DNA of 64,000 bases, taken from positions 186,396-250,395 of the IMG/VR virus record IMGVR_UViG_3300032038_000001. One strand, given 5' to 3'. The notes beneath the pieces were generated by a model. That model did not search any database. It saw nothing but the letters and a program-made list of their open reading frames with translations, and was not told the origin of the DNA. Positions 1 through 59,900 of this stretch are shown in pieces. The first letter of the stretch is position 1, and each line of letters begins with the position of its first letter. Made by a program: the position numbers and the translations under genes. This DNA is from a virus (lineage: Duplodnaviria > Caudoviricetes).

Positions 1-912
1 GTTTACAGATGTTCTCTTAGTAACAAAGTCAACAACACCGGTAACGATATCATCAACGTGCAGTTCAGTACCTTCAGAACCAGTAACAGTAGTATCAATC
101 TTACCACCGAGCCACATATTATCTGAGAGGTTAATTCTCATAGGTCTGTTCAGAGGTACTTCAATAGTCTTAGTATCATCATCAGGATCTGCTACAACAA
201 ACTTGATGATCTTCAGGTCCATAGTAAACTCTTCTCTTGCAGCGTTTGTCTTTGAACCCTCAGCATTAGCATCAGTCAGATTAGCAACTACATCATAGTC
301 AACAGCAGGAAGATTAACAACGGTATTCTTGATAGGAAGACCCTTACCTGCTGCATATACTTCCTTGAATTCATCAGTGAAGAAGCACTGAGGATACTTC
401 CATCTCTTAGTCTTATCATTGTTATCAACAATATAAGTCTGCTCGATATGCTTCTTGATTATAGGGCTCTTTGTAACCTCAGTCTGAATAATATCCTTAG
501 TAGCAAGCTTCAGCTGCTGCTTAATCAGAATAGGGAAATCAATAGCCTTGATAGGCAGAAGCTGAGGAACTCTGGTAGACTCCTTAACGAAGTCCTCACA
601 GCAGTTATCAAACATCTGCGAAACCTGCTCATACAGATGAGCGTGTGTACCATAGCTGCCATCAGGATCATCCATATTAGCGCACTCAGTCTTAAGTTCG
701 CCCAGAAGAGCCTCCTTAACAGCGTTCAGCTTAGCCTTATTCTTAATAATGGGATTGATATCAATCATCATATCGACACCGTTATTAAGCATAGAGTTAT
801 AAGCCTCAGTAAAAATGTCATCAAATGTGTTCTTTACACCAGCGCCGAAACCACCAACGGTTGCGGTCTCCTGGAAATCCTTAGCGGATTCAGAAATGAA
901 TGTTAATGCCAT
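1..912 (-). CDS. Probable major capsid protein precursor (5' part; runs off the left edge of the window)
   Basis: Open frame from ATG at 912 (RBS AAAAGGAG) to position 1: MALTFISESAKDFQETATVGG...EDFVKESTRVPQLLPIKAIDFPILIKQ... Codon usage looks highly expressed. A late promoter lies at 1033-1044 and neighbours are head-type genes. Absent from the ORF track because it lacks a stop in the window. Capsid identity is inferred from context and remembered resemblance to AR9-like capsid N-termini. Confidence 0.65.
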   Translation of the reverse strand, partial: MALTFISESAKDFQETATVGGFGAGVKNTFDDIFTEAYNSMLNNGVDMMIDINPIIKNKAKLNAVKEALLGELKTECANMDDPDGSYGTHAHLYEQVSQMFDNCCEDFVKESTRVPQLLPIKAIDFPILIKQQLKLATKDIIQTEVTKSPIIKKHIEQTYIVDNNDKTKRWKYPQCFFTDEFKEVYAAGKGLPIKNTVVNLPAVDYDVVANLTDANAEGSKTNAAREEFTMDLKIIKFVVADPDDDTKTIEVPLNRPMRINLSDNMWLGGKIDTTVTGSEGTELHVDDIVTGVVDFVTKRTSVN

Positions 913-1060: not shown

Positions 1061-2863
1061 TTATTTGTTGATTTTCTTTGTTTTGGTAAGAAGTTTAAAT
1101 ATTAACTGAACAGAAACTACTAAATTTTGATAAAAGAGCAATGATTGAATATACGAGTTGGTTTCAAATTTAATCATCATATAATCATATGCTAAATCCT
1201 TAACTTCTCTTAATTTAGAAACTGCTGTTTTTACAATCTGATTAACTGCTAAGTCATCTTTGATATTTGTATCAAGTTTTGATATGTAGTTATCTATTGC
1301 ATTGTAAAGTGACATATATTCTCTGAAAAGATTGTACTTTCTAGTTGTATCATATTCCAAACCAGGTTTTTTCTTTTCATTATTTTGAGCAGCTTGAACT
1401 GTATTATTTGGATTTGTTCCTGTTCCATTAAAATTTGTATCTGTTTGGCTAGCATCATTATTTTGATTATCATCATTCATCGGTTGGATATCGCCAGATG
1501 CATTATCAGTATTATTATTAAAATTTGTATCTTGAGTATTTTGGTTTTCACCATTTGTTGTTTGGTCATTGCTTTGTGATTGATTTTCATTATTCGCATC
1601 TTGATCATCGTTCATAGGTTCTATATCACCAGTTGCATTATTATCGGTAGCTTGATCGTCTTGATTCTCATTATCATTCTGATTATTATCATCAATTGGT
1701 TGGATATCACCGGATGCATCAGATGAGTCATCAGAACCACTGGAATCATTATTTGTTGGGTCTTCTTCTGATGTGGTATCATCTTCTATTGGTTGAATAT
1801 CACCAGTATTATCAGAAGCATCGTCTTCCAATGGTTCAATGTTATTAGAATCAGTTCCATCATCAATAGGTTTAATATCGTTAGTGGTATCATCTTCTAT
1901 TGGTTGTATATCACCAGTATCATCAGACGTATTATCTTCCAATGGTTCAATGTCATCAGAACCGGTTTCATCATCAATAGGTTTAATATCGTTAGTGGTA
2001 TCATCTTCTATTGGTTGAATATCACCAGTATCATCAGAAGCATCGTCTTCCAACGGTTCAATGTTATTAGAATCAGTTCCATCATCAATAGGTTCAATTT
2101 CCACATCAGATGAGTTATCAATAGGTTCGATATCATTAGTAGTGCTATCATCTTCTATTGGTTCAATATCATCATCATCGGAGACATCGTCTTCTATTGG
2201 TTGAATATCACCATCATCAGATGTATCATCTTCCAAAGGTTCAATGTCATCAGAATCAGTCGCATCATCAATATGTTCAATTTCGACATCAGATGAGTCA
2301 TCAATAGGTTTGATATCGTTAGTAGTGCTATCATCCTCTATTGGTTCAATATCATCATCAGATGTATCATCTTCCAATGGTTCAATGTCTGATATATCAT
2401 CATCACTAATAGGTTCGATGTCAGCTATATCCATTGAATCGATATCTTCCAAATTATCTTCGTTTTCATCATCTAATGGTTCAATATCATTGATATGTTT
2501 ATCATCATTTTTATTAGATTTTTTTTGTGGTTTCTTTTTTTTAGTCTTCTTCTTTTTAGGTTTAGGAATTTTTGGGATATCTTTGATATCAACATCATAA
2601 TCGTCTTCGTCTAATTCCGCAATATCCAGATCAATAGGAAGTTCATCATCTTCCAAATCCATATCAGATAAGTCCACATTAAATTCCAAATCATCTATTT
2701 CATCATCGGTAATATCTATTGATGATAATAAGTCTATATCATCTTGTCTTTTCTTCGTTTCAATAAATATTTCCTGTGTATCTGGTATTGTATTGACACT
2801 TTCATCAGCTAGAAAATATTTACCATATTTGTTGTTTATCCTTTTAGGAGTTTTGAGCAACAA
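1061..2863 (-). CDS. Highly acidic low-complexity repeat protein with helical C-terminal domain; candidate prohead scaffold/core protein
   Basis: 600 aa with about 20 D(I/V)(E/Q/K)P(I/L)(E/D)DD repeats. TTG start with RBS GGGGTG. Directly upstream of the capsid gene. Confidence 0.6.
   Translation of the reverse strand: MLLKTPKRINNKYGKYFLADESVNTIPDTQEIFIETKKRQDDIDLLSSIDITDDEIDDLEFNVDLSDMDLEDDELPIDLDIAELDEDDYDVDIKDIPKIPKPKKKKTKKKKPQKKSNKNDDKHINDIEPLDDENEDNLEDIDSMDIADIEPISDDDISDIEPLEDDTSDDDIEPIEDDSTTNDIKPIDDSSDVEIEHIDDATDSDDIEPLEDDTSDDGDIQPIEDDVSDDDDIEPIEDDSTTNDIEPIDNSSDVEIEPIDDGTDSNNIEPLEDDASDDTGDIQPIEDDTTNDIKPIDDETGSDDIEPLEDNTSDDTGDIQPIEDDTTNDIKPIDDGTDSNNIEPLEDDASDNTGDIQPIEDDTTSEEDPTNNDSSGSDDSSDASGDIQPIDDNNQNDNENQDDQATDNNATGDIEPMNDDQDANNENQSQSNDQTTNGENQNTQDTNFNNNTDNASGDIQPMNDDNQNNDASQTDTNFNGTGTNPNNTVQAAQNNEKKKPGLEYDTTRKYNLFREYMSLYNAIDNYISKLDTNIKDDLAVNQIVKTAVSKLREVKDLAYDYMMIKFETNSYIQSLLFYQNLVVSVQLIFKLLTKTKKINK
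1774..2100. repeat. 111-bp (37-aa) tandem repeat, about 3 copies, within a wider degenerate repeat tract (about 1600-2480)
   Basis: ATCTTCTATTGGTTG anchor at 1781, 1892 and 2003 (period 111). Confidence 0.85.
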
Positions 2864-4759: not shown

Positions 4760-4771
4760 TAAATATTTGTT
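4760..4771 (-). promoter_or_regulatory. Late promoter motif (AACAAATATTTA)
   Basis: AACA-N6-TA match in the intergenic gap upstream of the RBS. Confidence 0.65.
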
Positions 4772-4857
4772 TTCAGTATATGTTTTTCATGAAAAATGTA
4801 TACTTATTTATTCTATTAAATATTATAAGATATGCATCTGAGAGGTACATAAAAGAA

Positions 4858-4887
4858 GAAGACAAGGAACCTTAGCGCCTTGTCTTC
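4858..4887 (-). terminator. Intrinsic terminator
   Basis: GAAGACAAGG/CCTTGTCTTC inverted repeat downstream of 4898..5677, followed by U-rich sequence on the minus strand. Confidence 0.55.
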
Positions 4888-4897
4888 ATATTCTTTT

Positions 4898-5677
4898 TTA
4901 AAATGCATCTATTAATATTGATTTTTTCCGTTTATTATTGTTATCTGTAAGAGCTCTTCTTTCAGACTTGTCTTTTGAATCTGCAACTACTTTTGCTGTC
5001 AATAAGTTCAATGCGGCTGTACCAAAACTATCTTTTTGTGCTTTACTAGCTTTTTGACCAGTTGCTTTAATAGCAGTATCCTGTTTTTTAATATGTTCAG
5101 CCATTGTACTCATTTTTTTATTAAACTGCTCTCTATCATTTTCATATGTTTTCTTTTGTTTTTCTAATGTTTCAACGGTTTGTCCAACTTTTCTTCCTAA
5201 TTTTTTTAAAGTTTCTCTTGTACTTTTAACCGCATCATTCAACTGATCAAGTTGTCCGTTTGGACCATCTATTTTACTTAATCTACTATTTAATCTTTTA
5301 GTTCTAGACTCTAGATCATCAACGCGAGACTTAGTATCCTTTTGTGAATCGTTCAATTTATTCGTAGCTTTTGTTAATTGAGTAACTCTTCTTTTTAAGT
5401 CTTCGTTGTCATGTTTAAGACCATTTAATGTATCTTTGAGATCATTTACTTGTTGTTCATACATTTTTTTATTAGCATAATTATTAGCTAACCATATTCC
5501 TAAACCAATACATGCTAAACATAAAACAATGGCTTTTTTAATCATTTTTTGTGTTTGTTTACTATCATTAATTGTTTTTTTTGCTTCATCTATATGCTGT
5601 TTTCTTGTATTGGAAGTACTCTGATTTTGAACCTCCTCAACCATGTAATCAAGATATAAATCTAAATAATCATTCAT
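4898..5677 (-). CDS. Coiled-coil protein with one hydrophobic segment and N-terminal MNDYLDLYLDYMVEE tag; candidate internal/ejected virion protein
   Basis: RBS GAAAGGA. Hydrophobic segment IVLCLACIGLGIWLA followed by a long heptad region. Confidence 0.6.
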   Translation of the reverse strand: MNDYLDLYLDYMVEEVQNQSTSNTRKQHIDEAKKTINDSKQTQKMIKKAIVLCLACIGLGIWLANNYANKKMYEQQVNDLKDTLNGLKHDNEDLKRRVTQLTKATNKLNDSQKDTKSRVDDLESRTKRLNSRLSKIDGPNGQLDQLNDAVKSTRETLKKLGRKVGQTVETLEKQKKTYENDREQFNKKMSTMAEHIKKQDTAIKATGQKASKAQKDSFGTAALNLLTAKVVADSKDKSERRALTDNNNKRKKSILIDAF

Positions 5678-6461
5678 ATCTTTATCTTCCTTTCTATTTT
5701 TTATCCTGGCATTCTATCAATTTTATTTTCTAATTTTACTGTTTCTTGTCTTAATTTAAAACAATTCTTCAGAATTTTTTTGCGACACAGATTCAGTTCC
5801 TTTGCAGGATCACCACTTTTTGATGCTTTAACTATTATACTAGTAATTTCTTTTATTGCTAATATTGCAAATGGTGCTGCTAAGGCAATCTTTTCTCGTG
5901 TTCTATTACCATTCCTATATTTTTCATAAGAATCTTTCCAATCATTTTGAGCTTTATAATAATATTCCGATTCATCGCCATATAACTTTCTAGCTTGATC
6001 TAAAGTTTCATGTTTGGATCTAACGTCCCCACCAAATATTTTTTCATCAGCTTTTGAAAGTTTGTCTGAATACTTGTTTCCAAGTTTAGTTTCTTCGAGG
6101 AAAGCAGTTACTCCTGCAACCACTGCCAGAACTTTAAATGCATCAATAAGTCCTTTTTTCAGTTGGCTCATTACCACACTTAATGTGCTAATATCCATGG
6201 TATTTACAATTTTTATCACGTCATCTATGTTCTGTTTAGCATATTTAACTTCGTTAATAGCCTCTTTTTTCTTTTTATGTTTTAATGCCACTTTTGCATG
6301 ACCCATATGTTCTTTATATTCATTTAAATTTTTCTTATATAATGCAATCATTTCACGATTAGCAGGTTTTTTTACCTTTTCAGGTTTTTTACTACTCTTA
6401 TCTTTTTCACTGCTCTCCTCAACAATGTAATCAAGATATAAATCTAAATAATCATTCATAT
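5633..6461. repeat. 47-bp direct repeat (5633-5679 and 6415-6461, one mismatch) encoding MNDYLDLYLDY(M/I)VEE
   Basis: 37 bp are identical (atgtaatcaagatataaatctaaataatcattcatat), plus ctcctcaac on the left. Confidence 0.9.
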
Positions 6462-7119
6462 TTTCATCCTCTTTCTCAATATATTTTTCTTGATAATTAA
6501 ATTTATTATATATTTTATTTTTTACTTTTTTTAGATTAGAAATAGTCACTTTTGGATTATACATGTACATATCCGTACCGGCATTAACTAATGATATATT
6601 ATTTAAATCTTTTAATTCCTGAGGTCTATATAAAGATGGAAGTTTTCCTAACGGTACTCCCTGACCTATTACTTCAGCAACAAAACGTGAACAAAAATAT
6701 TTTCGATGACTTTCACTATCTTTATTACGAGCAATATTAGCTAAACCTACAAAATCATATTTAAAATCTTTTTCATGCGATGAAAAATAATTAACACGAT
6801 CTTTCATTTTCTTTATCGCAAATTTATTTACATACATCACATATACTAAATACTTAGTTTGTTTATGCTTATACCAGTCATCAGTAGTTCCTTGATATGT
6901 ATATCCAAATAATGAGTGAGGACCTTTTATTTTTTGTGTCCGAGTTGCAAAACTATACATAGGTGATAGCTCTGGATTAAATGATATAAGTGAGTGAGTC
7001 CATTCATCACCAGTGAAATGCTTTATTGCCATACCTAATGGGTTATCACTATATGTCAGTACAATAAATACAGGATATCTATTTTCATCATTATAATCAG
7101 CCTCTTCATTTATATACAA
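5701..7119 (-). CDS. Permuted papain-like NlpC/P60 (YiiX/YaeF-type) domain fused to a second tagged helical protein (internal ATG at 6459)
   Basis: His-before-Cys order: EWTHSLISF...YDFVGL...YFCSRFVAEVI...YRPQEL. The second half begins with the duplicated tag and retains an RBS-like AAAGAGG. Confidence 0.7.
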   Translation of the reverse strand: MYINEEADYNDENRYPVFIVLTYSDNPLGMAIKHFTGDEWTHSLISFNPELSPMYSFATRTQKIKGPHSLFGYTYQGTTDDWYKHKQTKYLVYVMYVNKFAIKKMKDRVNYFSSHEKDFKYDFVGLANIARNKDSESHRKYFCSRFVAEVIGQGVPLGKLPSLYRPQELKDLNNISLVNAGTDMYMYNPKVTISNLKKVKNKIYNKFNYQEKYIEKEDENMNDYLDLYLDYIVEESSEKDKSSKKPEKVKKPANREMIALYKKNLNEYKEHMGHAKVALKHKKKKEAINEVKYAKQNIDDVIKIVNTMDISTLSVVMSQLKKGLIDAFKVLAVVAGVTAFLEETKLGNKYSDKLSKADEKIFGGDVRSKHETLDQARKLYGDESEYYYKAQNDWKDSYEKYRNGNRTREKIALAAPFAILAIKEITSIIVKASKSGDPAKELNLCRKKILKNCFKLRQETVKLENKIDRMPG

Positions 7120-7154: not shown

Positions 7155-7166
7155 TAATGTTATGTT
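7155..7166 (-). promoter_or_regulatory. Late promoter motif (AACATAACATTA)
   Basis: AACA-N6-TA; identical 12-mer to the one upstream of the RNAP subunit gene. Confidence 0.7.
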
Positions 7167-7197: not shown

Positions 7198-7247
7198 TAA
7201 AAAAAAGAGAGTAGTGAATTTTATTATATCACTACTCTCTTTTTTTA
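7198..7247 (-). terminator. Intrinsic terminator after gyrA (bidirectional form)
   Basis: AAAAAAAAGAGAGTAGTGA/TCACTACTCTCTTTTTTT inverted repeat. Confidence 0.75.
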
Positions 7248-41958: not shown

Positions 41959-41970
41959 AACATAACATTA
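41959..41970 (+). promoter_or_regulatory. Late promoter motif (AACATAACATTA)
   Basis: AACA-N6-TA upstream of the RNAP subunit gene. Confidence 0.7.
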
Positions 41971-46326: not shown

Positions 46327-46950
46327 ATGTCTCATAACCATTCTATTCTAAATGAAAATTTTAAAAAGAAAAAAGATAAATTCATTGATACTATTTTTGA
46401 AAATTATTGTAATAATAATCTTGATGAAGAATCAGTGATATTACTACTTGAGAAAGTTATTAAAGATGATGATATTGAAATTAGATATACAAGAAATAGA
46501 AAAGATGTTAATAATATATATAACACCATGACTACTAAAGATAAAATCTTTTTAGCAGGTGAAATAGGTAATCCTGTTGCTCCTAAAGAGTATGCTAGTG
46601 CAAAGGAGTATGGTAGAAAAGGCTCATTATTATTTCATGCAATATTATATAAAAATAATATACCAGTTGCGTTTGCTGATGTATTTGAGCATAAAGGAGC
46701 AGAGAAAACTGGAGAAGTATGTATCGGAACACGAAACGGTAGACAATATCGTAGAAAAGGATACGGAACTATAGTAATTAATGAAGCTGTTGACTGGTTT
46801 AAAAAACAGTCAAAACTTAAAGAACTGAGATGGTATGCACATAGTGGGAATGATGCTTCTATCTCTTTAGCTAAAAAAATGGGATTTAAAAAATACAACG
46901 ATAAAGGTGAATATAAAGGTGAATTTGTTGAATATGATTTAAGAAAATGA
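46327..46950 (+). CDS. GNAT acetyltransferase (RimJ/RimL-like)
   Basis: YRRKGYG acetyl-CoA motif A; NDASISLAKKMGF motif B. Confidence 0.85.
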   Translation: MSHNHSILNENFKKKKDKFIDTIFENYCNNNLDEESVILLLEKVIKDDDIEIRYTRNRKDVNNIYNTMTTKDKIFLAGEIGNPVAPKEYASAKEYGRKGSLLFHAILYKNNIPVAFADVFEHKGAEKTGEVCIGTRNGRQYRRKGYGTIVINEAVDWFKKQSKLKELRWYAHSGNDASISLAKKMGFKKYNDKGEYKGEFVEYDLRK

Positions 46951-47912: not shown

Positions 47913-47955
47913 AATGAGATTTCTCTATAGTTTAGAGAAAGGAGTTGAAGTTAAA

Positions 47956-50900
47956 TTGGCTAATAAACCAGCAACTGTTGATACGGTTCACAAAAATAGA
48001 TCTAAATGGCTTACAAATGCCATGAAGAGTATAGGTGCATCAACAGCTAGTTCATTAAAGAGTATATACCCCAACTTAGCAGAAGTTGGCGGTGCTTCTT
48101 TTAATGCATCAAAAACAATAGTATCGTCTATTCGTAATGGACGTACAACTGTTAGAAGAGTTACTGAAACTCTGAAAAATAATAAATATGTTCAATATGC
48201 CAATAAAGCATATAAGAATGCACTTTCAGACTTCAAATCAGGAAATTTTGATCAGACCGATAGAATGGTAGGTTTTGATGAGGATGATTTTTCAGGATTT
48301 GATGATTTTGATGATGTTTCATTTGGTGATGAGGATACTCCAGTCACTAATAATATTAATGTTTCATCTGATAACGGAACACGGGATGCCGTATTAAACT
48401 TATCATCTAATGTTCAAAAACAATCTGAGAACATGATGAAAACTAATAAAGCTACTATGGATGCATATTTATCCATCAATGCTGCTAGTATGTATCAGAT
48501 TGAAAAACTTGGAGGTGAGATTAATACTCACCTCAATAATATTAATAATAGCCTTTCTGCGATAGTTCAATATCAAAATGAGAATATGAACAAATTCATG
48601 GAAGCATCAATGGCTTTCTATGAACAGATGGGTAGCAAATTAACAAGTAATGATGATTATATGAGTAATGATAAGGTTACTGCTGTTGGTACATTTGGTA
48701 ATAGTAAAGGCGGTATAAACCTTTCAAGATATAAAGCATATGTTAAATCTCAATTAAAAGAGAGTCTTCCACCTGAAGTTTCTATGATTGTCGATGCGCT
48801 CGATGATAGTACACTTGATATGATTACTAGCAACCCTTTGGGATTTGCAACAAATGCTCTTACATCATATATGATACCAAAACTTGTTGGTACTACAATT
48901 TCAAATGTTGAAAAAACATTTGAAACGTTTGTACCTACTATGCTTGAAAGACTTGCTGATTATGGTGAAACATACGCTGATACCATGTTTGGTAAGCTCA
49001 CTCGATATGCAGCAAGGTCTTTTGGTTTAAAGAGGGCAGGTACCAGTAAGAAGCTTGAGTCTACAAAAATTGAAAGAGGTGCTATACCTTTTGATGGTGA
49101 AACAAAGCATGCAATCACTCAAGTTATTACAAAAGAACTCCGTGATCAAACAGCTTATTTACGAGCAATAGCTGAAAAAGTAGTTTCTAAAAGAAAAGTA
49201 GAGCAGTCGATGAATAAAAGAGAGTACTGGGATTATGCTACTGAAAGCTACCAGACTCAAGATAAACTTCGTGGTAACATTGCTGAAATGTTATCAAACT
49301 CAATGATTGATGCATTTTCTGATACCGATTTTTATAAGAAAATGTCTGCAATGATTGATGCTGAGACTGATGAAAAGAATAAAGGAACACTTGAAAATAC
49401 TTTCAATCTTCTTCTTAGCGGTATGGCTAAACATGATCATTATATCAATCTCAATGATCTGTCAGCTAATAGTGAAATAATGAAAGTAGTTAATAGTTTA
49501 AATGCAAAACAAGGAACAGATACTACTGCATTACAAGAGCTGATTGGTATGATCAAAAATCTTGATACTACAACAAGACAGACATCTAATGCCGGTCGTA
49601 TCAAAGCTCGAGAGGCTGTTAATAAAGTTACAGAAGAATTGAGTAAAAATTCTAATACATATAATCTTCGTGATGCTGGTGTTGAAGGTGTTGAGGCTTG
49701 GGACCTCGTAGACGAAGATATATATAATAAACGAGATAAAAAATATAAAAGAAAACGCGGTGCTAAAAGAGAAGCCAACTCTTTGGCACGACATCAAGCA
49801 TTAACCGCTGATACCCAAGAAACAGGGCTTCTTGGTCATCTTATAGCTCCGGCAACTAAAAAAGCCACATCGTTCATGGAAGCTGTTATGGCTGGAAATT
49901 TTAAGCAGGGTAAAATTGAATTTAAGTCAATATTTACTGATACTGCTAAAGGTATATTTGAAACAGTTCGTGATGGAGTTATTATTCCGATGGGAGAAAC
50001 TATCAGAGATAATGTTCTTTCACCGATGAAAAATATGATATTCGGTAAAAGGAATGATGAAGGTTTCTCCGAAGGTGGTTTATTATCTGGGCTTAAAAAT
50101 AAATCAAAAGATATTTTTGATGCTGTTAAATATGAAATCACTGGTGAAGAATACACTGATTCGGATGGTGTAAAACATGAAGCAAAAGATAAAACTGTTG
50201 TATCATCAGTAAAGAGTCTTGGTTCTAAAATTAAAAAAGGAGTCATGATTGAACTTTTTGGTGAAGATGAAGTTGATGAAAATGGCAATCCCACCGGAAA
50301 TAAGAAATCATCAGGTCTTTTAAATTCTTGGAAGACAGCAATATCTGATAGCTTAAAGAGATTTAAAACAGCAGTGTTTGGTGAGAAAGATGAATTCACT
50401 GGCGGAAACTGGGGTGGATTTATAAGTCATGAAGCACAGGAATATATGAAAGAAAAGAAAATACCAATTATTGCTGGAGCTGGAACTGGTAGTATAATTG
50501 GTACTATATTAGGTGGACCTGTACTTGGTGCTGGTATTGGTATAGCATCATCACTAGTAGGTTCTTCTGATAAATTTAAAGGTTTTCTTTTCGGTGATGA
50601 AAATCAACTTGGTCTGATTAATGGCATTAAAAAAGCATTTGCGCAAGGTCGAGGAATGCATGATGTTGAAAATAATACCGAATTTAGCTTAGATACCCAA
50701 TTTGTTGGTAAAGCTGGTGTTGGTTTAATCGGCGGTATAATTGCAAGTGCATTTTTACCAGGTGGACCTGTAATGGGAGGTCTTTTAGGTCTTGGAGCTT
50801 CTATTGCTGGAAGTGGTAAAGACTTTAAGAAATTCTTGTTCGGTGAAGATGAAGTTGATGAAAACGGTAATCCTACAGGTGTTCATAAACATGGTCTTCT

Positions 50901-53900
50901 TGGTAAAGTGGGTAATATGATAAATGCCCAATTCTTAAGACCTGTTAAGACACAACTCAGTTATTATGTAAAGAAAACTGCTTTGGATTTAGAGTATACC
51001 ATTGGAGATACATTTAATTTCATGGCAGAAATAGTATCTGAAAAAGTTGGTGACGTTGTAGGTTCAGTCCAGGCATCATTTAAGAAGATGGCTAATGAGG
51101 CTGTTACATTCCTTAAAAAGAACATATTAGACAATCTTCAAAATATAGTAAGAACAACATTAGTTGAACCTGTCTCGAAGGCTGTTACTGGAGCAGCATC
51201 ACTTGTTTACACAATTGGAAGAAAAATGGTCATTGGACCTGTAGAAAAATTACATGGAATGCTTGACGTTGCATATTCCAATGTAGTACAGTGGTGGCAA
51301 AAGTCTAGCTTCAAAAACTTTATTGATGACGGAAAAGATTGGTTAAAGAAAGCCATAAAAAATCAATTAAAGTGGATAGGTAGACGAATTGTAGATGTTA
51401 CTAAGTTAGCTCTTTCACCTCTTGGATTAGTATTTAAGGGTATGAGCGGTTTAGGAACTTTAATTGGTCATAGCCTGAAAAAACATGGTATAGAATTAAA
51501 GCTTCCGAAAAGACGTAAACAAGAAGAAGATACTTCTATTAATGAATGGGATGTTGAAGGTGCTACACGTGCAGAACGTTGGCGTAAGAGACGTGCTCAG
51601 CACAAGGCTAGATCAGCTGAATTAAAAAAACAATATCAAGAGCAAAAAACTCGTGACAAAAATGCTAAACTTATTGAGAAGTGGACTAAAGGACAATACT
51701 CAAGTGATACTGCAGAAGCACGTCTGAAGGCACAGCAGATGTCTGGTGGTAGAATAAAACTTGATACAAGTGTTGAAACTGAAGACGCTTTAATTCAAAA
51801 GGCAAAAGCCCAGATAACTGGCGGAACCACATTTGGTGTTTCTCGTGATGCTCTTCAAGGAACAGTCTTCTCGACATTAAGTCCAGAAGCTCAAACCGTT
51901 GTTCTCTTAGATGAATTAATTAAAGTGATGAGAGGAGAAGATACTGACGAAGACTCTGAAGCTGCCAAGAAATTCAGAGAAGAGTCCGGTTTGGATAGTT
52001 TGTCAGATGCTGAAAAAGGAGACTTAACAAGACGTGTAAACGCTATATGGGAAAAGCATAGAAAAGCAGATGGAACCATTGATTATGATGCGGCTGGTAG
52101 AGAAATTGCTAATTCATCTGACGCTGATAAAGATCGATTATTGGCAATGCATATACATAGTAAAAAATACATGAAAAACCGTAAGGCTGAGATGAAGAAT
52201 CAGACTGTTGATGGTAACAATGGTGAAAATTCTGAATATCAATGGCAAGATAACATCGAACTTCGTGGTGGAGTTAAAAACTGGGCTAAGCATGAATTTG
52301 TGGATAAATATGTTTATAAACATAATAAGACACAAATCAACAGAATGCAAGAGAAATATAATAGAAAAACTCATGAAAAACTGAAATCATTCTACAGGCT
52401 TCTTTCAAAGGCTATTCGTATAGAATTGAAAGCTGCTGATAATGAATCAACACCAGTTCTCGACTACTTTGGCAGTAAAAAGAAAAGTGATTATGATTTA
52501 TTCTTAAAAATGGGTCCTGTTAAATTTGCAAACCGAATTATAAGTGAGGGTGCCGTTACTCTTTGTGGTATAGCAATAAATCAGGATACATTGAACAAAA
52601 AAGACAATAATATGTTATTAAATAAACTTCATCCATACGAAGGTTTATTTAATAAAGTATCAAATTTTGATAATCTTTCGTTGAATGCTACCGAAGGTTT
52701 ACAAGATAATGAAAGATATAAAAAACTTACCGGTGCTGTATCAGATTATGATACCAATGAAAATAATATTGCTAATGGAAAAAAATCTTCTGATAATACA
52801 GAAGCATCTACTGAAAACACCTCTGAACAATCGGAAGCATCTACTGAAGGGGCTAATGGAAGAGGTCGAGCTAAGATGGTTATTACTCGTAATAATGCAC
52901 CTAAAGGTGGACGAGGTATTCTTGGTTTAGCTCTCGGAGCTGCTACAACTGCAGTTAAAGGTGTTATTGGTGCAGGTAAGGCTACAATCAAAGGTGTTAC
53001 TGCTATTGGCCGTAAAACTAGAGAAAGCGTTGAAGCTGCCGGTGAAAAAATAAAAGGTGCTAAAGATTTTGCTAGGCAATCTCTTAATAAAATACGTGGT
53101 AAAGGAATCACTCAGCAAGATAAAATAGATGCTCAGGAGAAAGCTCAAGACAGAGCTACTATGCTTGCTATTCGAGAGAATACAGCAGTATCTGCTGCTA
53201 GTCAAGTAGAACATGTTTCAGCGTGGAAGAAAATGTTCAGCAAGAAGGGTTTATTGACTGCTGGATTACTTCTTATGATGCCTAAAATAATTAAAGGTGT
53301 TAACTGGCTAGTGAATGGAAATGGCTTTAGTAAAGTTATTGGCGGCGTAAGTAATACGTTTAAGAGTGTCACTGAAAACGGTTTAATACCTACAATAGTT
53401 GATTTAAAAGAAAAAGCCAAGAAAAAACTCGAAGAAATGTTCCCTAAAACCATGGAAAAAGTTGGAACCGTCATGGACACATTTTCGAAATGGCATGACG
53501 AGATAGATAAAAACGGTGGTAATATCTTCAAATGGGCAGATGGTAAATTAACAGATAGCCCAATTGGTGATCTGTATACTTCAGCTAAGAACGTATTTAC
53601 TGCGTATGGCACAGTTGCAAAAGCATTAGCTCCTGCAGCATTAACGCTTGTACAATCGATCGACTGGAATTCTATCACAGAGTCCTTGATACCTGTTGCA
53701 AAAGATATATCTACTGTTATAAATACTATATCAGATGCTATCAATAATTTCTTTGGATATAATAAAGATAATAAAGATGGTAAATCTACAGCTGAAAGAA
53801 TTAATGAATATAGTCAAAAAGAGAAAAACGCCGTTACAAAAATGATGGATGGTGATATTATAGGTGGTGCAGAAGACTTTATCCTCAATGAAGATGGTGA

Positions 53901-56900
53901 ATTTGATGGAGTGTCTGCTGCTAAATTAAAAATATTAGCTAATCCAAGAACATTATCCAAAGCACCTAAAGTTGGAAAGGGACTTGTTAAAGCAGGTGGT
54001 AAAACTGCTAAAGGAATTGGATGGATTCTCGGTAGAACTACCAAAACAGGCAAGTTTGCTAGAAAGGTTGGCAAAGCTGGTAAGAAAGCTGGAGAAGCAT
54101 TTAGTAAAACCAAGGTTGGTAAGAAAGCTGGAGAATTATTATCCGCCGGTAAAAATAAAATAAGTAGTTTCGGTAAAAATGCAGCTGGTAAATTTAGTAA
54201 GTTTAAATCTAACGTAAGTGGATTGTCTGACCTTGCTATGGAATATGGTGATGATGCTTACAAGATGATGGGTGAAAGTAAATTTACTAATCTAGCAGCA
54301 AAAGGATTGACAAAAGTCCGTAATGTAGCCAACTCAGCAAAAAGTGCTGCATCCAAGCTTGCTGGAAAATTTACTGGAACAAAAGTAGGCAGTGCTGTAG
54401 CCACCGGTTTATCTAAAACTGGTAAAGCACTTGCATTTGTAAATAAAAAAGGTGGAGCTAAAGAGCTCGCTACAAAAATAGTAAAGAGTGATGCTGTGAA
54501 ATCAGTTGCTCAGAAGGTTAAAAATTCTGCAGCTGGTGAAGGCGTAGAAGAAATGGTTAAAAAGCTTTTATCCAAACTTATTAAAGCATATAAATGGGTT
54601 GGAGAAAAGTTAGGTAAAAAAATAGGTAAAAAGGTTGCTACCGAAGCTGCTGAAGCTGCTGCCGAAAAAGGCATTAAATCAGCAATGAAAAAAGGTGGTT
54701 CAAAATTTATAAAAATGATAACCGCCGGTATTGCTAAGATAACTGGTAAAATAGCTATGGCTGCATCAACTGCATCAATTGCGGATGCTGCATTCTTTAC
54801 TTTAGGTGCTATTGACTATGGTTCTAAAGGCGGAACTGCAAGACTATTCCAGATTGATGAAGAATATGTAGATGCTAAGATGCGTATAATTTCAACAGTA
54901 ATTGGTGGTTTATTACAAGTGTCTTGGGGTGCTTGGGTTGATCTTGCCAATGAGTTAGTAGCATCGTTCAAGGGAATAAATCTTATCAGTGAATTAGCTT
55001 GTCTGCTTTATAAAGCAATTTCCGGTAAAAAGAAAGACAACAAACTTGATGAAGCTAGAGAAGATTTTAAAGCAGAATATAATGAATATGTAGATAAGAA
55101 GATAGAAAAAGAATATCAGAAACAACTTGAAGATGGTACTCTTCCTAAAAATGAAAATGGCGATGAAATGACTCTTGAAGAGTTTGCAGCGGCTGTTAAA
55201 GAGAAAAAAATTGTTGTCAAGCATAAATCATTCGATGAATATAATAAAGATAAGCATAAAGGCACATGGGCTAAAGCTGGTTCGGCGATTAAAAAGCAGT
55301 TCTCCACTAAGAAAGGTAGAGAAGAAGCGGCCATAAAGGGTGCGTTACTTTTAAATCCTGTAACTGGTGGTGCTACATTAGCTTATGAAGGCCTAAAGAA
55401 AACTAAAGTAGGAAAAGCTATTGGCAAAAAAGCCAAAGAAGTAACTAACGCTGCTAAGAAAAAAGCAAAAGAATTAGGTGCAGATATTAGCGGTGCAGCC
55501 AAGTCTGTATGGTCTTCCATAAAAGGTATTGGTAAAAAGAAAAAGAAGAAAAAGAACAAAGATGCTAAAAAGTTCTCTGATATGCTCACAGCTAGTTCAA
55601 AGGACTTATTTGCAGTAAATACTGCTAAAGCAAAAGATACTTTCGGCGCAATAAAATCACAATCGTCCGCTATGTGGGATAATGCTAAAAAATCTATATC
55701 AGATAGATTATCAAAGGTTAAAGATTTCTTGACAGGACATAAAGAAACTGCATGGTACGAACAGTCGGGTTCATATTATGTAGCCAATGGTGATACATTT
55801 GACCATTATAACGCTAACGGTGATTTGATAGATAGTGGTGTTTCTTCAGATTCTATTTCTGAACTTATTGATACCGGTATATTGACTGAAGGTGAAATCG
55901 AAGGAGCATCTAGATTCAGCGCTAAACTTAAAGATATTAGCGGTTCACTTAAATCTAGCTGGACTTCTGCATTTAAGAAAGCAGATTTATTGCATAAAGG
56001 ATTAAAAACTAAGATTGGTTCTATGTTTAAAAATATAACCAAGAATGGAATAATTGGTTCAATTAAGAAAGCAATTAGAGGTTCTTCAAGAGAAGCTTGG
56101 TTTGATCCTAATGGTAACTATTACATTAAGAACGGTAAAAAGTACGATTACTATAACCCGAATAACGATTTAATTGAAAAAGGTATTCCTGCTGATGAAG
56201 TTGAAGAAAAGATTCAGACAGGTATGCTTACCAAAGGAACTATACAAAGGGATAATTCAGCTAAGTCTGCTATTAAGAAAATCCAGAGTGCTGTAAAGGA
56301 ATCTTGGACTAAGGCTAAGAGTGTAGTTTCCAGTGGTTGGAAAAGATTCAAAGATTGGATAAGCGGTGGTTCTGGTACTGGTAATAAAAATATTAACTCT
56401 ATAAAGAAATCAGATTATGGTGATCTCTCACTCATGTTTGGTATGGGTGGTTCTGGTGGAGGTCGTGGAGAAGACATAGTAAACGGTATGCCGTACTATT
56501 CTCAGAATGATTCTTCTTGGAAGAATATGAAGTATGGTAATGATGGTGCTACAATGGGTGACAGTGGTTGCGGTCCTGCAGCTATGTCTATGATAGCATC
56601 CAAGCTTACAGGTCAATCAGTATCTCCTCTTGAAACAGCTTCACTTGCTGAACTTACTGGTGATAGAGACAGCACTGGTACTAACTGGAACTTTATAGGA
56701 AAAGCATCTGCTGCATATGGAATAGATAATACACAAGCTTCTAATCCTAGCAGCGGTTTCATTAGATCACAACTTGAAAGTGGTCATCCGATGATTCTTT
56801 CTGGTGCCTCTGGTACTGGAAGAGGTGGACGAGGTGGTTCACCATATACGGATGCAGGACATTATGTAGTTGCTACTGGTATAGATAGTGCTGGTAATAT

Positions 56901-59900
56901 CAGTGTTAGCGATCCTCGTGGCAAATCATATAATAGAAAATATAATGTAAATGAGGTAGCCGATCAGACTGGAATGGCATGGTCATTCGGTCGAGGCGGA
57001 ATGGGTGGTGGATTTGGCAGCTCTTATGCAGATAAGGTTGGTCAAGTTCTTGCTGACTTAAAAGGCCCTTCATATAAAGCACCTATTAATAATCTTCCTT
57101 ATGGTCAGTGTACATGGTACGCTGAAGGACGTGCGCATGAAAAATATGGATGGGATGAATTTACTAGACGTGCTATGGGTAATGGTGGCGAAATATATTA
57201 TAACGCTAAATCTTGGGGACTTGACGCAGGTACTGAGATTAAACCTAATTCGCTTATTTCACGTGGTGGTTCTAGTTCATATGGTCATGTACTTTACGTT
57301 GAAGATGTTGATAAAGAAAATAATATGGTATACTACAGTGAAGGTAACTCTGATGGTTCAGGTCATGCTCCTGATGATGGTGTTATTAAATCTGCATCAT
57401 TAGACCAGTGGAACGCTAGAAATCCATATGGATATGTATACACTAAGGGTTCTAATATATATAGCGACGCTGATGGAAAAGGAACCACATCATCTGGTGA
57501 TACGTCTTATTCCAGTGATTCTAGTGGTGCAACATTCTCCCAATCTGAAAATGCTATATCATCATTAACTGGATTTATGGGTGAAATAGGCAATCGTTTA
57601 ATAAACGGTATGTTTACAGGTAAATTAGATAGTGATTTCACATCATATTTCTCAGGAACAACAGAGTCTTCAACTAATAATACAATTAATACAGATAACA
57701 GTGGTAAGTCGATGATAATGATTGGTGACTCGAGAACTGTTGGAATATGTAATGCTTTAGGCGGACCAAATATACAGACCACTGGATATACTGGTACCGT
57801 CGGTGATGATATATTTATTGGTAAAGTGGGCGAAGGTCTTGCTTGGTTGAAGTCTAGTGGTATATCGTTACTTAAAACAGCAAAGAATAAAAAAATTAAT
57901 GCGTATATTGTCATTTGGCTCGGTGTTAACGATTGCGCAATGGGAGACCCCGAATCATGTGGTAAAAATTATGCGACATATATTAATGAAAACATTTCTC
58001 ATTTAGGCAAAGATGTTTATGTTGTCACTCCCGCTCCTACTGAGGATGGATATGGTAATAATATAATCAACAATTCACTTCCTGGTTTTAATAAGGGACT
58101 CAAAAACGGACTCAATAGTATTGTCAACTTTGTTGATCTTTATGATTGGTTTAAAAATGGAATTTCTCATGGTTTATTAAAAACCGTTGATGGTGTTCAT
58201 TTTGATAAAGACTCTTATGTTGCAATTATAAATAAAATCAAATCATCTGTTGGAGCCGGTGGTGGTTCTGGATATGGAAGAAGAAAACCAACAATTACAA
58301 ATACAAATATATTACCAAATATGTGGGTTGACCCTACTGGTGGAAGTAGCTTCTACACAGGTGGTGGTCGTGGTGAATTTGCAATAACAGGCAATGGTTC
58401 CGAATATTCATATAGAAATCCTCTTCTTGATATTGATAACCTTGCTGGTTATAAAAAGACGTTCTTCAGAACATATCCTATTAGTAAAGGATTACCAGCA
58501 GTAAGGAAAGCTGTAGCTAATGATGAGTGGGAACTCATGAAAAAAGCTGGATCAGCTTCCGACTATACAAAGTTGGGTAATCTGTATAGAACATCAAAAG
58601 ACCATACAAACCATGGTGGTCATAAAACTTTTGAAAAAGGAGATACAAAACAATACGTCTATACATTATATCAGTCACCAATGCCTCATAATGGTAAGTC
58701 TTTCTATATTGCTAAGGACACAGCTTCATCAGTGATGAATAATACTTCAACTGGTTCATCTATACGTGAAGCATGGAAATCAATATGGAATAGAATTAAA
58801 CAGAATGAAAAAGATAATGATACTAAAGTTACAAACGACGGAGATAAATCTGATTCTTATGATGACATGGTTGAAAACGAAGAGACTGATGGTTTTCCTA
58901 ATGGATGGATTGAAGCTGTAAAATATGTTAAAAAAGTATTTGCAGATGAATTGAAGTCAAAAGGACTTGGCTATGCATGGGAAGGTCATACATTTGACTT
59001 CGGATCCAAAGGTAAAAAGAATTTCAGAAAAGACTGTACTGGTTTTGTATCTGCCGCACTCTGGTACTATGGAGCAGTTCCTGATGATATAGTACCTGCC
59101 GGTGGTTGGACATCCCATTGTTTCGGTGGTTCAAATAATGATCCAAAACTTATTGCAGCACTCGATAGTGCGGGATTTAAACGTATGGATTTCCCTGGAT
59201 GGGATAATTTACAATGTGGTGATATTTTAATTAAACATGAGTTTCATGGCGAAATATATTGTAGTGGTGATTCTGCTGCTAACCATCAGTCATGGAATGG
59301 CGGTTCTACTGAAGGTTTATGGGCAGATGATACCATATATGGTGCCGATTATAGTTATGAAGAAATTTGGAGACCACCTGCTAGTGCAGGAAGCAGATCT
59401 TCGAGTAGTGGTGGTGCTACATCATCCGGTAACATTATATCAGATATGACAAGCTTTATGGGTGAAGTAGGCAATCGTCTTGTAAACGGTATGTTTACTG
59501 GTAAATTCGATAATGATTTTTCATCCTATTTTGCAGGAGCATCAACAGATGGTTCTAGCGCAGCTTCAGGTGTTACTGTTGATGGCAAAGATGCTAGATC
59601 TATAACATGGAATTACTTCACTAAAAAAGGATATAGCAAGGCAGCTACTGCAGGCTTAATGGGTAATATAGAAAAAGAAACTTATCTCGATAGCAGTAAT
59701 CAAGCATTCCCTGCTGGTAATAATAAGAATGATGGTGTATCTACCGCTGAATGGAAATACAGTGGACACCGTGAAGGTACTGGTGATGATGGTGGTGGAC
59801 TTATTCAATGGACTCCATGGTATGATAAAATAGGTGCTTATTCTAAGGAAAAAACAGGTGATAACCTCGCTTGGACTAAAGACCTTCCTATGCAACTTGA

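Follow-up and report, generated by a model that had tools for sequence, protein, structure and literature searches.

The final 64 kb of the 250,395-bp genome of an uncultured jumbo phage from the rumen (a single-contig record rated complete, with 31% G+C; these 64 kb are called the window below) include two adjacent genes that share a short direct repeat encoding the same 15-residue peptide, MNDYLDLYLDY(M/I)VEE, here called the tag. In one product, P0001, the tag is the N-terminus and precedes a body designated C1; in the other, P0002, it lies between an enzyme domain and a second body, C2. Comparison of the locus with related loci shows that the tag-coding repeat, about 50-60 nt long, behaves as a recombination joint at which fast-evolving and apparently membrane-active bodies are swapped while the flanking genes stay near-identical, and that the repeats within each genome are homogenised through gene conversion. 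That diverse head proteins can share an N-terminal tag was already known. New here are natural variants that directly document conversion and deletion at such a tag, the internal copy behind an enzyme, the phage group in which the tag occurs, and a wider module that has not been catalogued previously.

The locus contains one direct-repeat family, whose two 60-nt copies (Table 1) are 92% identical. Over the 45 coding bases the copies differ by a single mismatch, ATG versus ATT, which exchanges Met for Ile (blastn 44/45, E 7e-18), and the tag corresponds to residues 1-15 of P0001 and residues 221-235 of P0002. An earlier interpretation made from this DNA alone (referred to here as the sequence-only reading) had claimed that the same peptide occurs at the start of P0001 and in the middle of P0002 with one coding mismatch and that the bodies downstream of the two copies are unrelated. 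Repeat detection, blastn and translation bear out the first claim, and the second holds as well, since outside the tag the two proteins have no detectable relationship and the BLASTP similarity between them (E 0.003-0.007) is due to the tag itself. The same reading stated that the internal copy keeps its own ribosome-binding-site-like AAAGAGG. That stretch is indeed present, but the repeat similarity takes in about 13 nt 5' of each ATG, and the stretch therefore belongs to the repeated unit rather than having been retained independently. Further copies of the tag, which had been envisaged, did not turn up in a six-frame scan of the entire 250,395-bp genome at a threshold of at least 8 of 15 matches, which found these two only. 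When viral and metagenome contigs were scanned for the DNA pattern of the tag, just the relative already known came up, and the short tag has been found on two cargo types only, in one small clade.

Relatives of the phage come from rumen and gut metagenomes, and three arrangements of the locus occur among genomes whose capsid proteins are 99.7% identical. The window and relative L005 have the enzyme-tag-C2 gene followed by the tag-C1 gene. L001/L016 and L002 instead have a single 479-residue enzyme-tag-C1 gene whose junction falls within the tag, which is the exact product expected from deletion between the two repeats. In L013 the tag-C1 gene is kept and the first gene is represented by an 86-residue remnant made up of its first 11 and last ~70 residues, indicating that the enzyme-tag-C2 gene is dispensable. 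L013 additionally has a 152-residue gene on the opposite strand inserted after gyrA (L013:580-1391).

The tag copies also show how they are maintained. In the window, codon 2 is AAT (Asn) and the two glutamates are encoded by GAG-GAG in both tag copies, while in L005 both copies have AGT (Ser) at codon 2 and GAA-GAG, so that the difference between the two genomes includes a synonymous site. Copies within one genome are thus more alike than orthologues are, which amounts to concerted evolution by gene conversion. Conversion, taken together with the natural enzyme-tag-C1 fusions, indicates that the tag works as a recombination joint, and these natural variants recombined at the tag uphold the view that it is a modular unit placed on unrelated bodies.

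It could be argued that the tag has no function of its own and is the footprint of recent duplication and ongoing gene conversion between neighbouring genes, tolerated as an unstructured segment at the N-terminus or in a linker. Identity between the copies reaches the noncoding ribosome-binding region and the unusual codons CTT, TAC and GAG are shared, meaning that the similarity results from descent at the DNA level; the narrow distribution of the short tag and the fact that the whole first gene can be lost agree with this explanation. However, 13 of the 15 residues are invariant in all tag copies seen although the linker right after the tag is variable, and a 45-nt tract would decay fast without selection or very frequent conversion. 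Given also that distant relatives possess a conserved module in the same slot (see below), a functionless footprint is improbable.

The bodies joined to the tag are the variable part of the locus. The window and L005 share 98% of amino-acid residues in the gyrA product, 97% in the enzyme, 98% in a 619-residue protein encoded downstream and 99.7% in the capsid protein, versus 80% in C2 and 69% in C1. Cargo divergence is concentrated beyond the hydrophobic helices, one of which is the transmembrane helix of C1 at about residues 46-66 of P0001 (nt 5542-5480). The ratio of nonsynonymous to synonymous substitution rates (dN/dS) is 0.83-0.84 in the distal parts of the cargo versus 0.06-0.11 in the flanking genes; dS itself is similar, which points to rapid amino-acid change and not to import of a distant allele. 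The three arrangements of the locus and the cargo dN/dS of ~0.84 mark the membrane-active cargo and the enzyme as probable host-interaction factors. Searches with C2 gave nothing usable in Pfam, generic helical bundles only when the whole model was submitted to Foldseek and VIA, and an uninformative best score of 0.77 in an ESM Atlas feature search. Kinship of C2 with AhlB/SmhB/ClyA was considered and rejected, as the weak matches to these proteins (E ~0.09; Z 7.3) are below the chance level for helical proteins.

The sequence-only reading had placed a YiiX-type papain domain upstream of the internal tag and fused to it in frame, and this assignment is confirmed by fold matches and by conservation of the His and Cys residues. 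AF2 predicts residues 1 to ~205 of P0002 with a pLDDT of 88.6. The best solved matches in Foldseek (probability 0.97-0.99) are 3kw0, a cysteine peptidase from Bacillus cereus, and 2if6, YiiX from E. coli; the corresponding VIA alignments have Z 12.6 with a root-mean-square deviation (rmsd) of 3.1 over 157 residues for 3kw0, and Z 11.2 with an rmsd of 3.0 over 143 residues for 2if6. An enzyme-domain profile compared with PDB sequences gave E 0.006, with both the His and the Cys motifs aligned to 3kw0. His42 and Cys143 are invariant in 46 sequences, and the catalytic His precedes the Cys. No Pfam family matches residues 1-225 of P0002 even at E up to 10, nor does any match the whole protein; as the fold is matched and the Pfam model is not, the domain represents a YiiX-like fold on an uncatalogued branch. 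This branch comprises ~945 representatives, many of which reside inside giant multi-domain proteins together with SNF2, GNAT, NUDIX and AAA domains. Giant phage proteins with such mixtures of domains are of the 'polyvalent' style and are predicted to be packaged (PMC5512222).

Proximity of the tag to this domain raises the question of whether the tag is the recognition or cleavage site of the YiiX-like cysteine enzyme, which would release itself from the fusion and trim P0001 in trans in the manner of leader proteases. Almost every close homologue has the tag, or the longer module described below, right after the enzyme domain; both catalytic residues, His and Cys, are preserved, and there is a precedent in the peptidase domains of polyvalent proteins, which were proposed to process those proteins (PMC5512222). 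Other module-bearing genes, however, are scattered far from the enzyme gene, L013 has tag-C1 without the enzyme, and the module is missing from the more distant relatives of the enzyme domain. No member of the YiiX family is known to be a protein-processing protease, and this role for the tag is highly improbable.

In distant homologues of the enzyme, the slot after the enzyme domain is occupied by a helix-loop-helix module of ~30 residues that reads roughly IIFEKYxxGKLxxExxxxLLEA, and the same long module begins P0022, a stand-alone homologue of C2. A hidden Markov model (HMM) of the long module identified six instances on five other proteins of this genome (Table 1). The terminal Glu is the sole nearly invariant residue, and L, I or V is found three residues before it. 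In a database search the long module was seen only in this metagenomic phage lineage, and it is unmatched in Pfam; a Pfam scan of seven tag and module fragments at E up to 10 gave noise only (E 0.09-0.15, unrelated families). A resemblance to a SHOCT-like pattern is no more than an impression. In the phage GenBank collection there was no match to the locus by blastn, or to P0002 or a module-bearing 242-residue protein by tblastn. Since the HMM of the long module fails to detect the short tag, the tag is said here to share the position of the module, and neither homology nor derivation is claimed.

The long module provides a second case of duplication at the DNA level. A 233-nt block encoding module, linker and transmembrane helix occurs in two copies of 88% identity (approximately genome 175617-175876 and 52266-52495), N-terminal in one gene and internal in the other, where it is fused in frame and has no internal Met. 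Elsewhere in the genome, a 162-residue protein (genome 123687-124175, minus strand) again begins with a short acidic-hydrophobic segment, followed by a K/E-rich linker and a transmembrane helix; its gene, ~6 kb from the head protease gene, is one of a group for small membrane proteins flanked by a virion structural gene and an RNA-polymerase beta fragment.

In a rival reading, tag and long module would be a cytoplasmic docking or oligomerisation peptide that has nothing to do with the capsid. Late in infection, such a peptide would gather enzymes (the YiiX-like hydrolase and the GNAT acetyltransferase) and bitopic proteins at the cell membrane, where they would serve lysis timing, envelope remodelling or superinfection exclusion. 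In most bearers the module is followed by a K/E-rich linker and, 35-45 residues on, by a transmembrane helix, an arrangement that would make the module cytoplasmic by the positive-inside rule. Its position in the proteins varies (N-terminal, internal or C-terminal), and a 106-residue protein without any other domain has it twice. The fast-evolving parts of the cargo are those beyond the hydrophobic helices. LRAT/PLAAT acyltransferases consist of a permuted NlpC/P60 domain followed by a membrane anchor, and the enzyme-then-anchor layout of P0002 recalls them. On the other side, the operon is located in the neighbourhood of head genes and not by an endolysin, and AF2 models the tag as an isolated, low-confidence helix that is not packed against the enzyme domain. 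Docking at the membrane is accordingly a possible but somewhat unlikely function for the tag.

Transcription of the two tagged genes appears to be organised as one late operon, given that the genes are bracketed by hairpins (Table 1). The loop of the 18-bp hairpin reads TATAATAAAAT. The site upstream of P0002 conforms to AACA-N6-TA/G, the consensus of mapped AR9 late promoters recognised by the non-virion RNA polymerase (PMC5312081). In this genome, 33 of the 61 upstream matches to AACA-N6-TA fall 20-39 nt before gene starts, which is the genome-wide peak, and 74 AACA-N6-TA/G motifs were found in the window versus 126 expected. That the motif is depleted overall yet concentrated before starts suggests that stray late promoters are selected against. 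Exactly the same 12-mer as before P0002 recurs at 41959-41970, before a gene for a 1422-residue protein. A consensus scan for sigma-70 promoters and terminators was uninformative for this phage.

The sequence-only reading had predicted two nested products from the P0002 gene, for which no support was found. The motif scan found no AACA-N6-TA site before the internal ATG or before the P0001 ATG; the internal ribosome-binding site and ATG are most simply accounted for as a relic of the start of the gene that was fused; and the other in-frame fusion of this kind in the genome, in the 233-nt block, has no internal Met. Internal initiation at 6459 is possible because in-frame ATGs behind GAGG or GGAG are rare inside genes (1.9% of internal ATGs versus 29% of true starts).

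After P0001, the genes on the same strand are those for the 619-residue protein, a 600-residue acidic-repeat protein and the major head protein, so that the tagged operon is three genes upstream of the last of these. The major head gene (window -899..912, minus strand) matches phrog_20655 (E 7e-36), and its product is nearest to those of Bacillus phages AR9/PBS1, Staphylococcus jumbo phages and Yersinia phages (~24% identity). The 600-residue protein (window 1061-2863, minus strand), whose gene immediately precedes the capsid gene, combines a conserved N-terminus with a long array of acidic repeats and, at the C-terminus, a helical domain of ~105 residues that is strongly conserved; its relatives vary from 413 to 600 residues through the repeat array, and it is a candidate scaffold. 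The genome also encodes gyrase subunits, a tubulin-like protein and RNA-polymerase beta fragments. A 4229-residue protein (window 47914-60603, plus strand) has tail-lysozyme, C39-like peptidase, CHAP and GDSL lipase domains within its C-terminal third and is probably a giant tail-associated lysin or tape-measure protein.

Table 1. Features of the tagged locus and instances of the long module (window coordinates unless marked genome)
Feature	Position	Strand	Basis
P0001, 259 residues: tag, charged linker, one transmembrane helix, long fast-evolving coiled coil	4898..5677	-	translation, domain and divergence analyses
P0002, 472 residues: YiiX-like domain, tag, helical C2 body; TTG start, ribosome-binding site GAGGTGA	5701..7119	-	translation, structure prediction
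YiiX-type permuted papain (NlpC/P60-like) domain of P0002, residues 1 to ~205, His42 and Cys143 invariant	6505..7119	-	AF2, Foldseek, VIA, profile, conservation
C2 body, residues 236-472 of P0002: all-helical, hydrophobic helices 323-341 and 411-429, residues 321-472 fast-evolving	5704..6414	-	
Internal repeat copy: Shine-Dalgarno-like AAAGAGG 6474-6468, in-frame ATG 6459-6457, tag codons 6459-6415	6415..6474	-	
Second repeat copy: Shine-Dalgarno-like stretch, ATG 5677-5675, tag codons 5677-5633	5633..5692	-	
Late-promoter-like AACA-N6-TA site, ending 35 nt 5' of the P0002 TTG start	7155..7166	-	motif scan
Next AACA-N6-TA site, 22 nt upstream of the 619-residue protein gene	4760..4771	-	motif scan
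Perfect 18-bp hairpin flanked by an A-tract and a T-tract, located between gyrA and the tagged operon; resembles a terminator on either strand	7200..7246		repeat search
Hairpin then T-rich run, likely terminator closing the two-gene operon	4853..4892	-	repeat search
Long module, N-terminal on bitopic membrane protein	genome 175617-176345	+	
Long module, N-terminal on bitopic membrane protein	genome 53227-54564	-	
Long module, internal on third membrane protein	genome 51896-53107	-	
Long module, two copies in 106-residue acidic protein without other domain	genome 122395-122715	-	
Long module, N-terminal on GNAT acetyltransferase	46327-46950	+	

The reading of tag function that is ranked first is that the tag is a shared address and propeptide analogous to the capsid-targeting sequence of phage T4, for which the chance is put at somewhat less than even. 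The tag would bring late proteins into the prohead, where a head protease of the gp21 type would trim it after the aromatic-(I/M)-V-E motif, and the hydrophobic cargo would be ejection-type proteins that meet the host envelope. Contact with the host envelope would in turn explain the fast evolution of the cargo. The ranking derives from the late promoter, the proximity to the capsid gene, a protease of the right family, the ending of the tag and the fast-evolving, membrane-active cargo. The late-type promoter is at the modal distance from the start of P0002, in the vicinity of head genes, and a gp21-type head protease is encoded at genome 116760-117635 (PF03420, 36.1 bits, above the cut-off; phrog_3014 'head maturation protease', E 3e-14). 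As in T4, a short peptide is borne by unrelated bodies, N-terminally in P0001 but internally in P0002. Also counted for the targeting reading were the nearly invariant terminal Glu of the long module, the precedents in T4, SPN3US and AR9 g115 (see below), and the occurrence of enzyme-domain relatives within giant proteins of the 'polyvalent' type.

Several observations weigh against capsid targeting. The sequence-only reading emphasised that the peptide ends in hydrophobic-x-Glu, and both copies do (I-V-E-E and M-V-E-E), but the ending is not specific: [LIVM]-x-E is common in this phage, occurring 0.019 times per residue and, within residues 11-20, in 18% of genes. Head-protease motifs are L/I-x-E in T4 and A/S/G-x-E in phiKZ-like phages. 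The tag copy of P0002 is internal, after a 220-residue enzyme domain, which is unlike T4 capsid-targeting sequences, and the long module can likewise be internal, C-terminal or double in a small acidic protein. Any homology between the long module and the short tag, to which its HMM is blind, rests on position, and the short tag is restricted in both cargo and clade as described above. A late-type site also precedes gyrB, so this promoter class is not confined to virion genes. Lysis control or superinfection exclusion would be equally suitable roles for bitopic membrane proteins that are late and fast-evolving. Finally, BLASTP and hhalign detected no significant similarity of P0001 or C2 to AR9 g115 or MarsHill gp066. 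Two further results weigh neither way. A predicted complex of P0001 residues 1-45 with the C-terminal domain of the 600-residue protein scored 0.11 (the mark being 0.32), and the virion proteome of vB_SauM-UFV_DC4, which does not include the gene at the equivalent position, lists 15 proteins only and is too shallow to count for or against.

Extended to the whole lineage, the targeting reading becomes a proposal that rumen AR9-like phages use portable address tags ending in a conserved Glu cleavage site, one form being the ~30-residue helix-loop-helix and the other the 15-residue tag, to load separate effectors into the head for ejection, among them the YiiX-like hydrolase, the GNAT acetyltransferase and helical proteins that insert into membranes. 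This would be a non-covalent, recombination-shuffled equivalent of the 'polyvalent' injected proteins. The proposal is speculative and, in its full form, rather unlikely.

Should the tag prove to be a packaging address, no capsid-targeting signal would have been defined earlier for AR9/PBS1-like jumbo phages, and the tag would provide a compact handle by which foreign proteins could be loaded into very large capsids. Independently of what the tag does, the locus illustrates cleanly, in nature, how a phage can swap and fuse accessory proteins through a short conserved coding repeat.

In the organisation of its variable bodies, the locus resembles polymorphic toxin loci such as those of contact-dependent inhibition (CDI cdiA-CT) and Rhs, in which a conserved junction motif lets downstream orphan modules replace the C-terminus. 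Here too the variable C-terminal body follows a conserved repeat that codes for the junction, this junction is found again on a downstream 'orphan', and the recombinant in which the first body is displaced occurs in nature. In contrast to those systems, the downstream gene has its own start and ribosome-binding site, the genes belong to a phage late operon, and there is no toxin domain. A polymorphic-toxin displacement cassette with immunity genes was considered and rejected, since there is no open reading frame between or after the bodies; 23 nt separate the two genes and a terminator follows P0001. The enzyme domain, for its part, resembles the YiiX/YaeF permuted papain-like proteins of the NlpC/P60 superfamily (2if6, 3kw0) in fold and His-before-Cys order, and differs from them in lacking a Pfam match and belonging to a phage-specific branch.

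The closest parallel in gene order is with cultured phages of the same group, as judged from the best cultured matches of the capsid protein (AR9/PBS1 and Staphylococcus jumbo phages). In AR9 (g115/g116) and the Staphylococcus phage MarsHill (gp066/gp067), a membrane/coiled-coil protein, an acidic protein and the capsid gene occur in that order. AR9 g115, annotated as 'virion protein', shares the layout of P0001, with a short acidic-hydrophobic N-terminus, a transmembrane helix and a coiled coil; its gene is two genes upstream of the capsid gene, ahead of and co-oriented with the gene for acidic g116, to which the 600-residue protein has weak local similarity (E 9e-4). The window differs in having the additional YiiX-like enzyme and the 619-residue protein gene, as well as in the lack of significant similarity for P0001 and C2. 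MarsHill gp066 (L018:3965-4975), also upstream of its capsid gene, has a mid-protein acidic stretch with a D-Y-L-D core as in the tag (hhalign E 0.15, not significant), and this stretch is followed by a basic linker, a hydrophobic helix and a coiled coil.

For the tag itself, T4 and the phiKZ-related jumbo phage SPN3US are the instructive precedents. SPN3US gp53 and gp54 have identical 15-residue N-termini that contain cleavage motifs, although the proteins are only 34% identical overall, and gp47 of the same phage is an ejection protein from a hypervariable locus in which a propeptide is followed by a transmembrane domain (PMC5694885). SPN3US and the phage described here both have identical 15-residue segments on strongly diverged jumbo-phage proteins, a layout in which a propeptide (here a putative one) precedes a transmembrane helix, and a variable locus. 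The SPN3US proteins, however, are paralogues whose cleavage at A/S-x-E was proven by mass spectrometry, whereas the bodies compared here are unrelated and the tag is read from sequence. In T4, a capsid-targeting sequence of ~10 residues ending in F-I-A-E is common to the N-termini of diverse internal proteins and is removed by gp21 (PMC8442874, PMC3012670). The tag has no sequence homology to it, is internal in one of its copies, is known from two cargo types and from sequence data, and precedes hydrophobic or membrane-spanning cargo instead of the small, basic proteins of T4. What the tagged locus shares with the T4 capsid-targeting system (IPI-III, Alt and the hyperplastic T-even locus) is a short N-terminal peptide on unrelated, fast-diversifying accessory proteins, an aromatic-Ile-x-Glu ending, a gp21-family protease in the genome, and the combination of conserved tag and variable cargo at a locus prone to shuffling.

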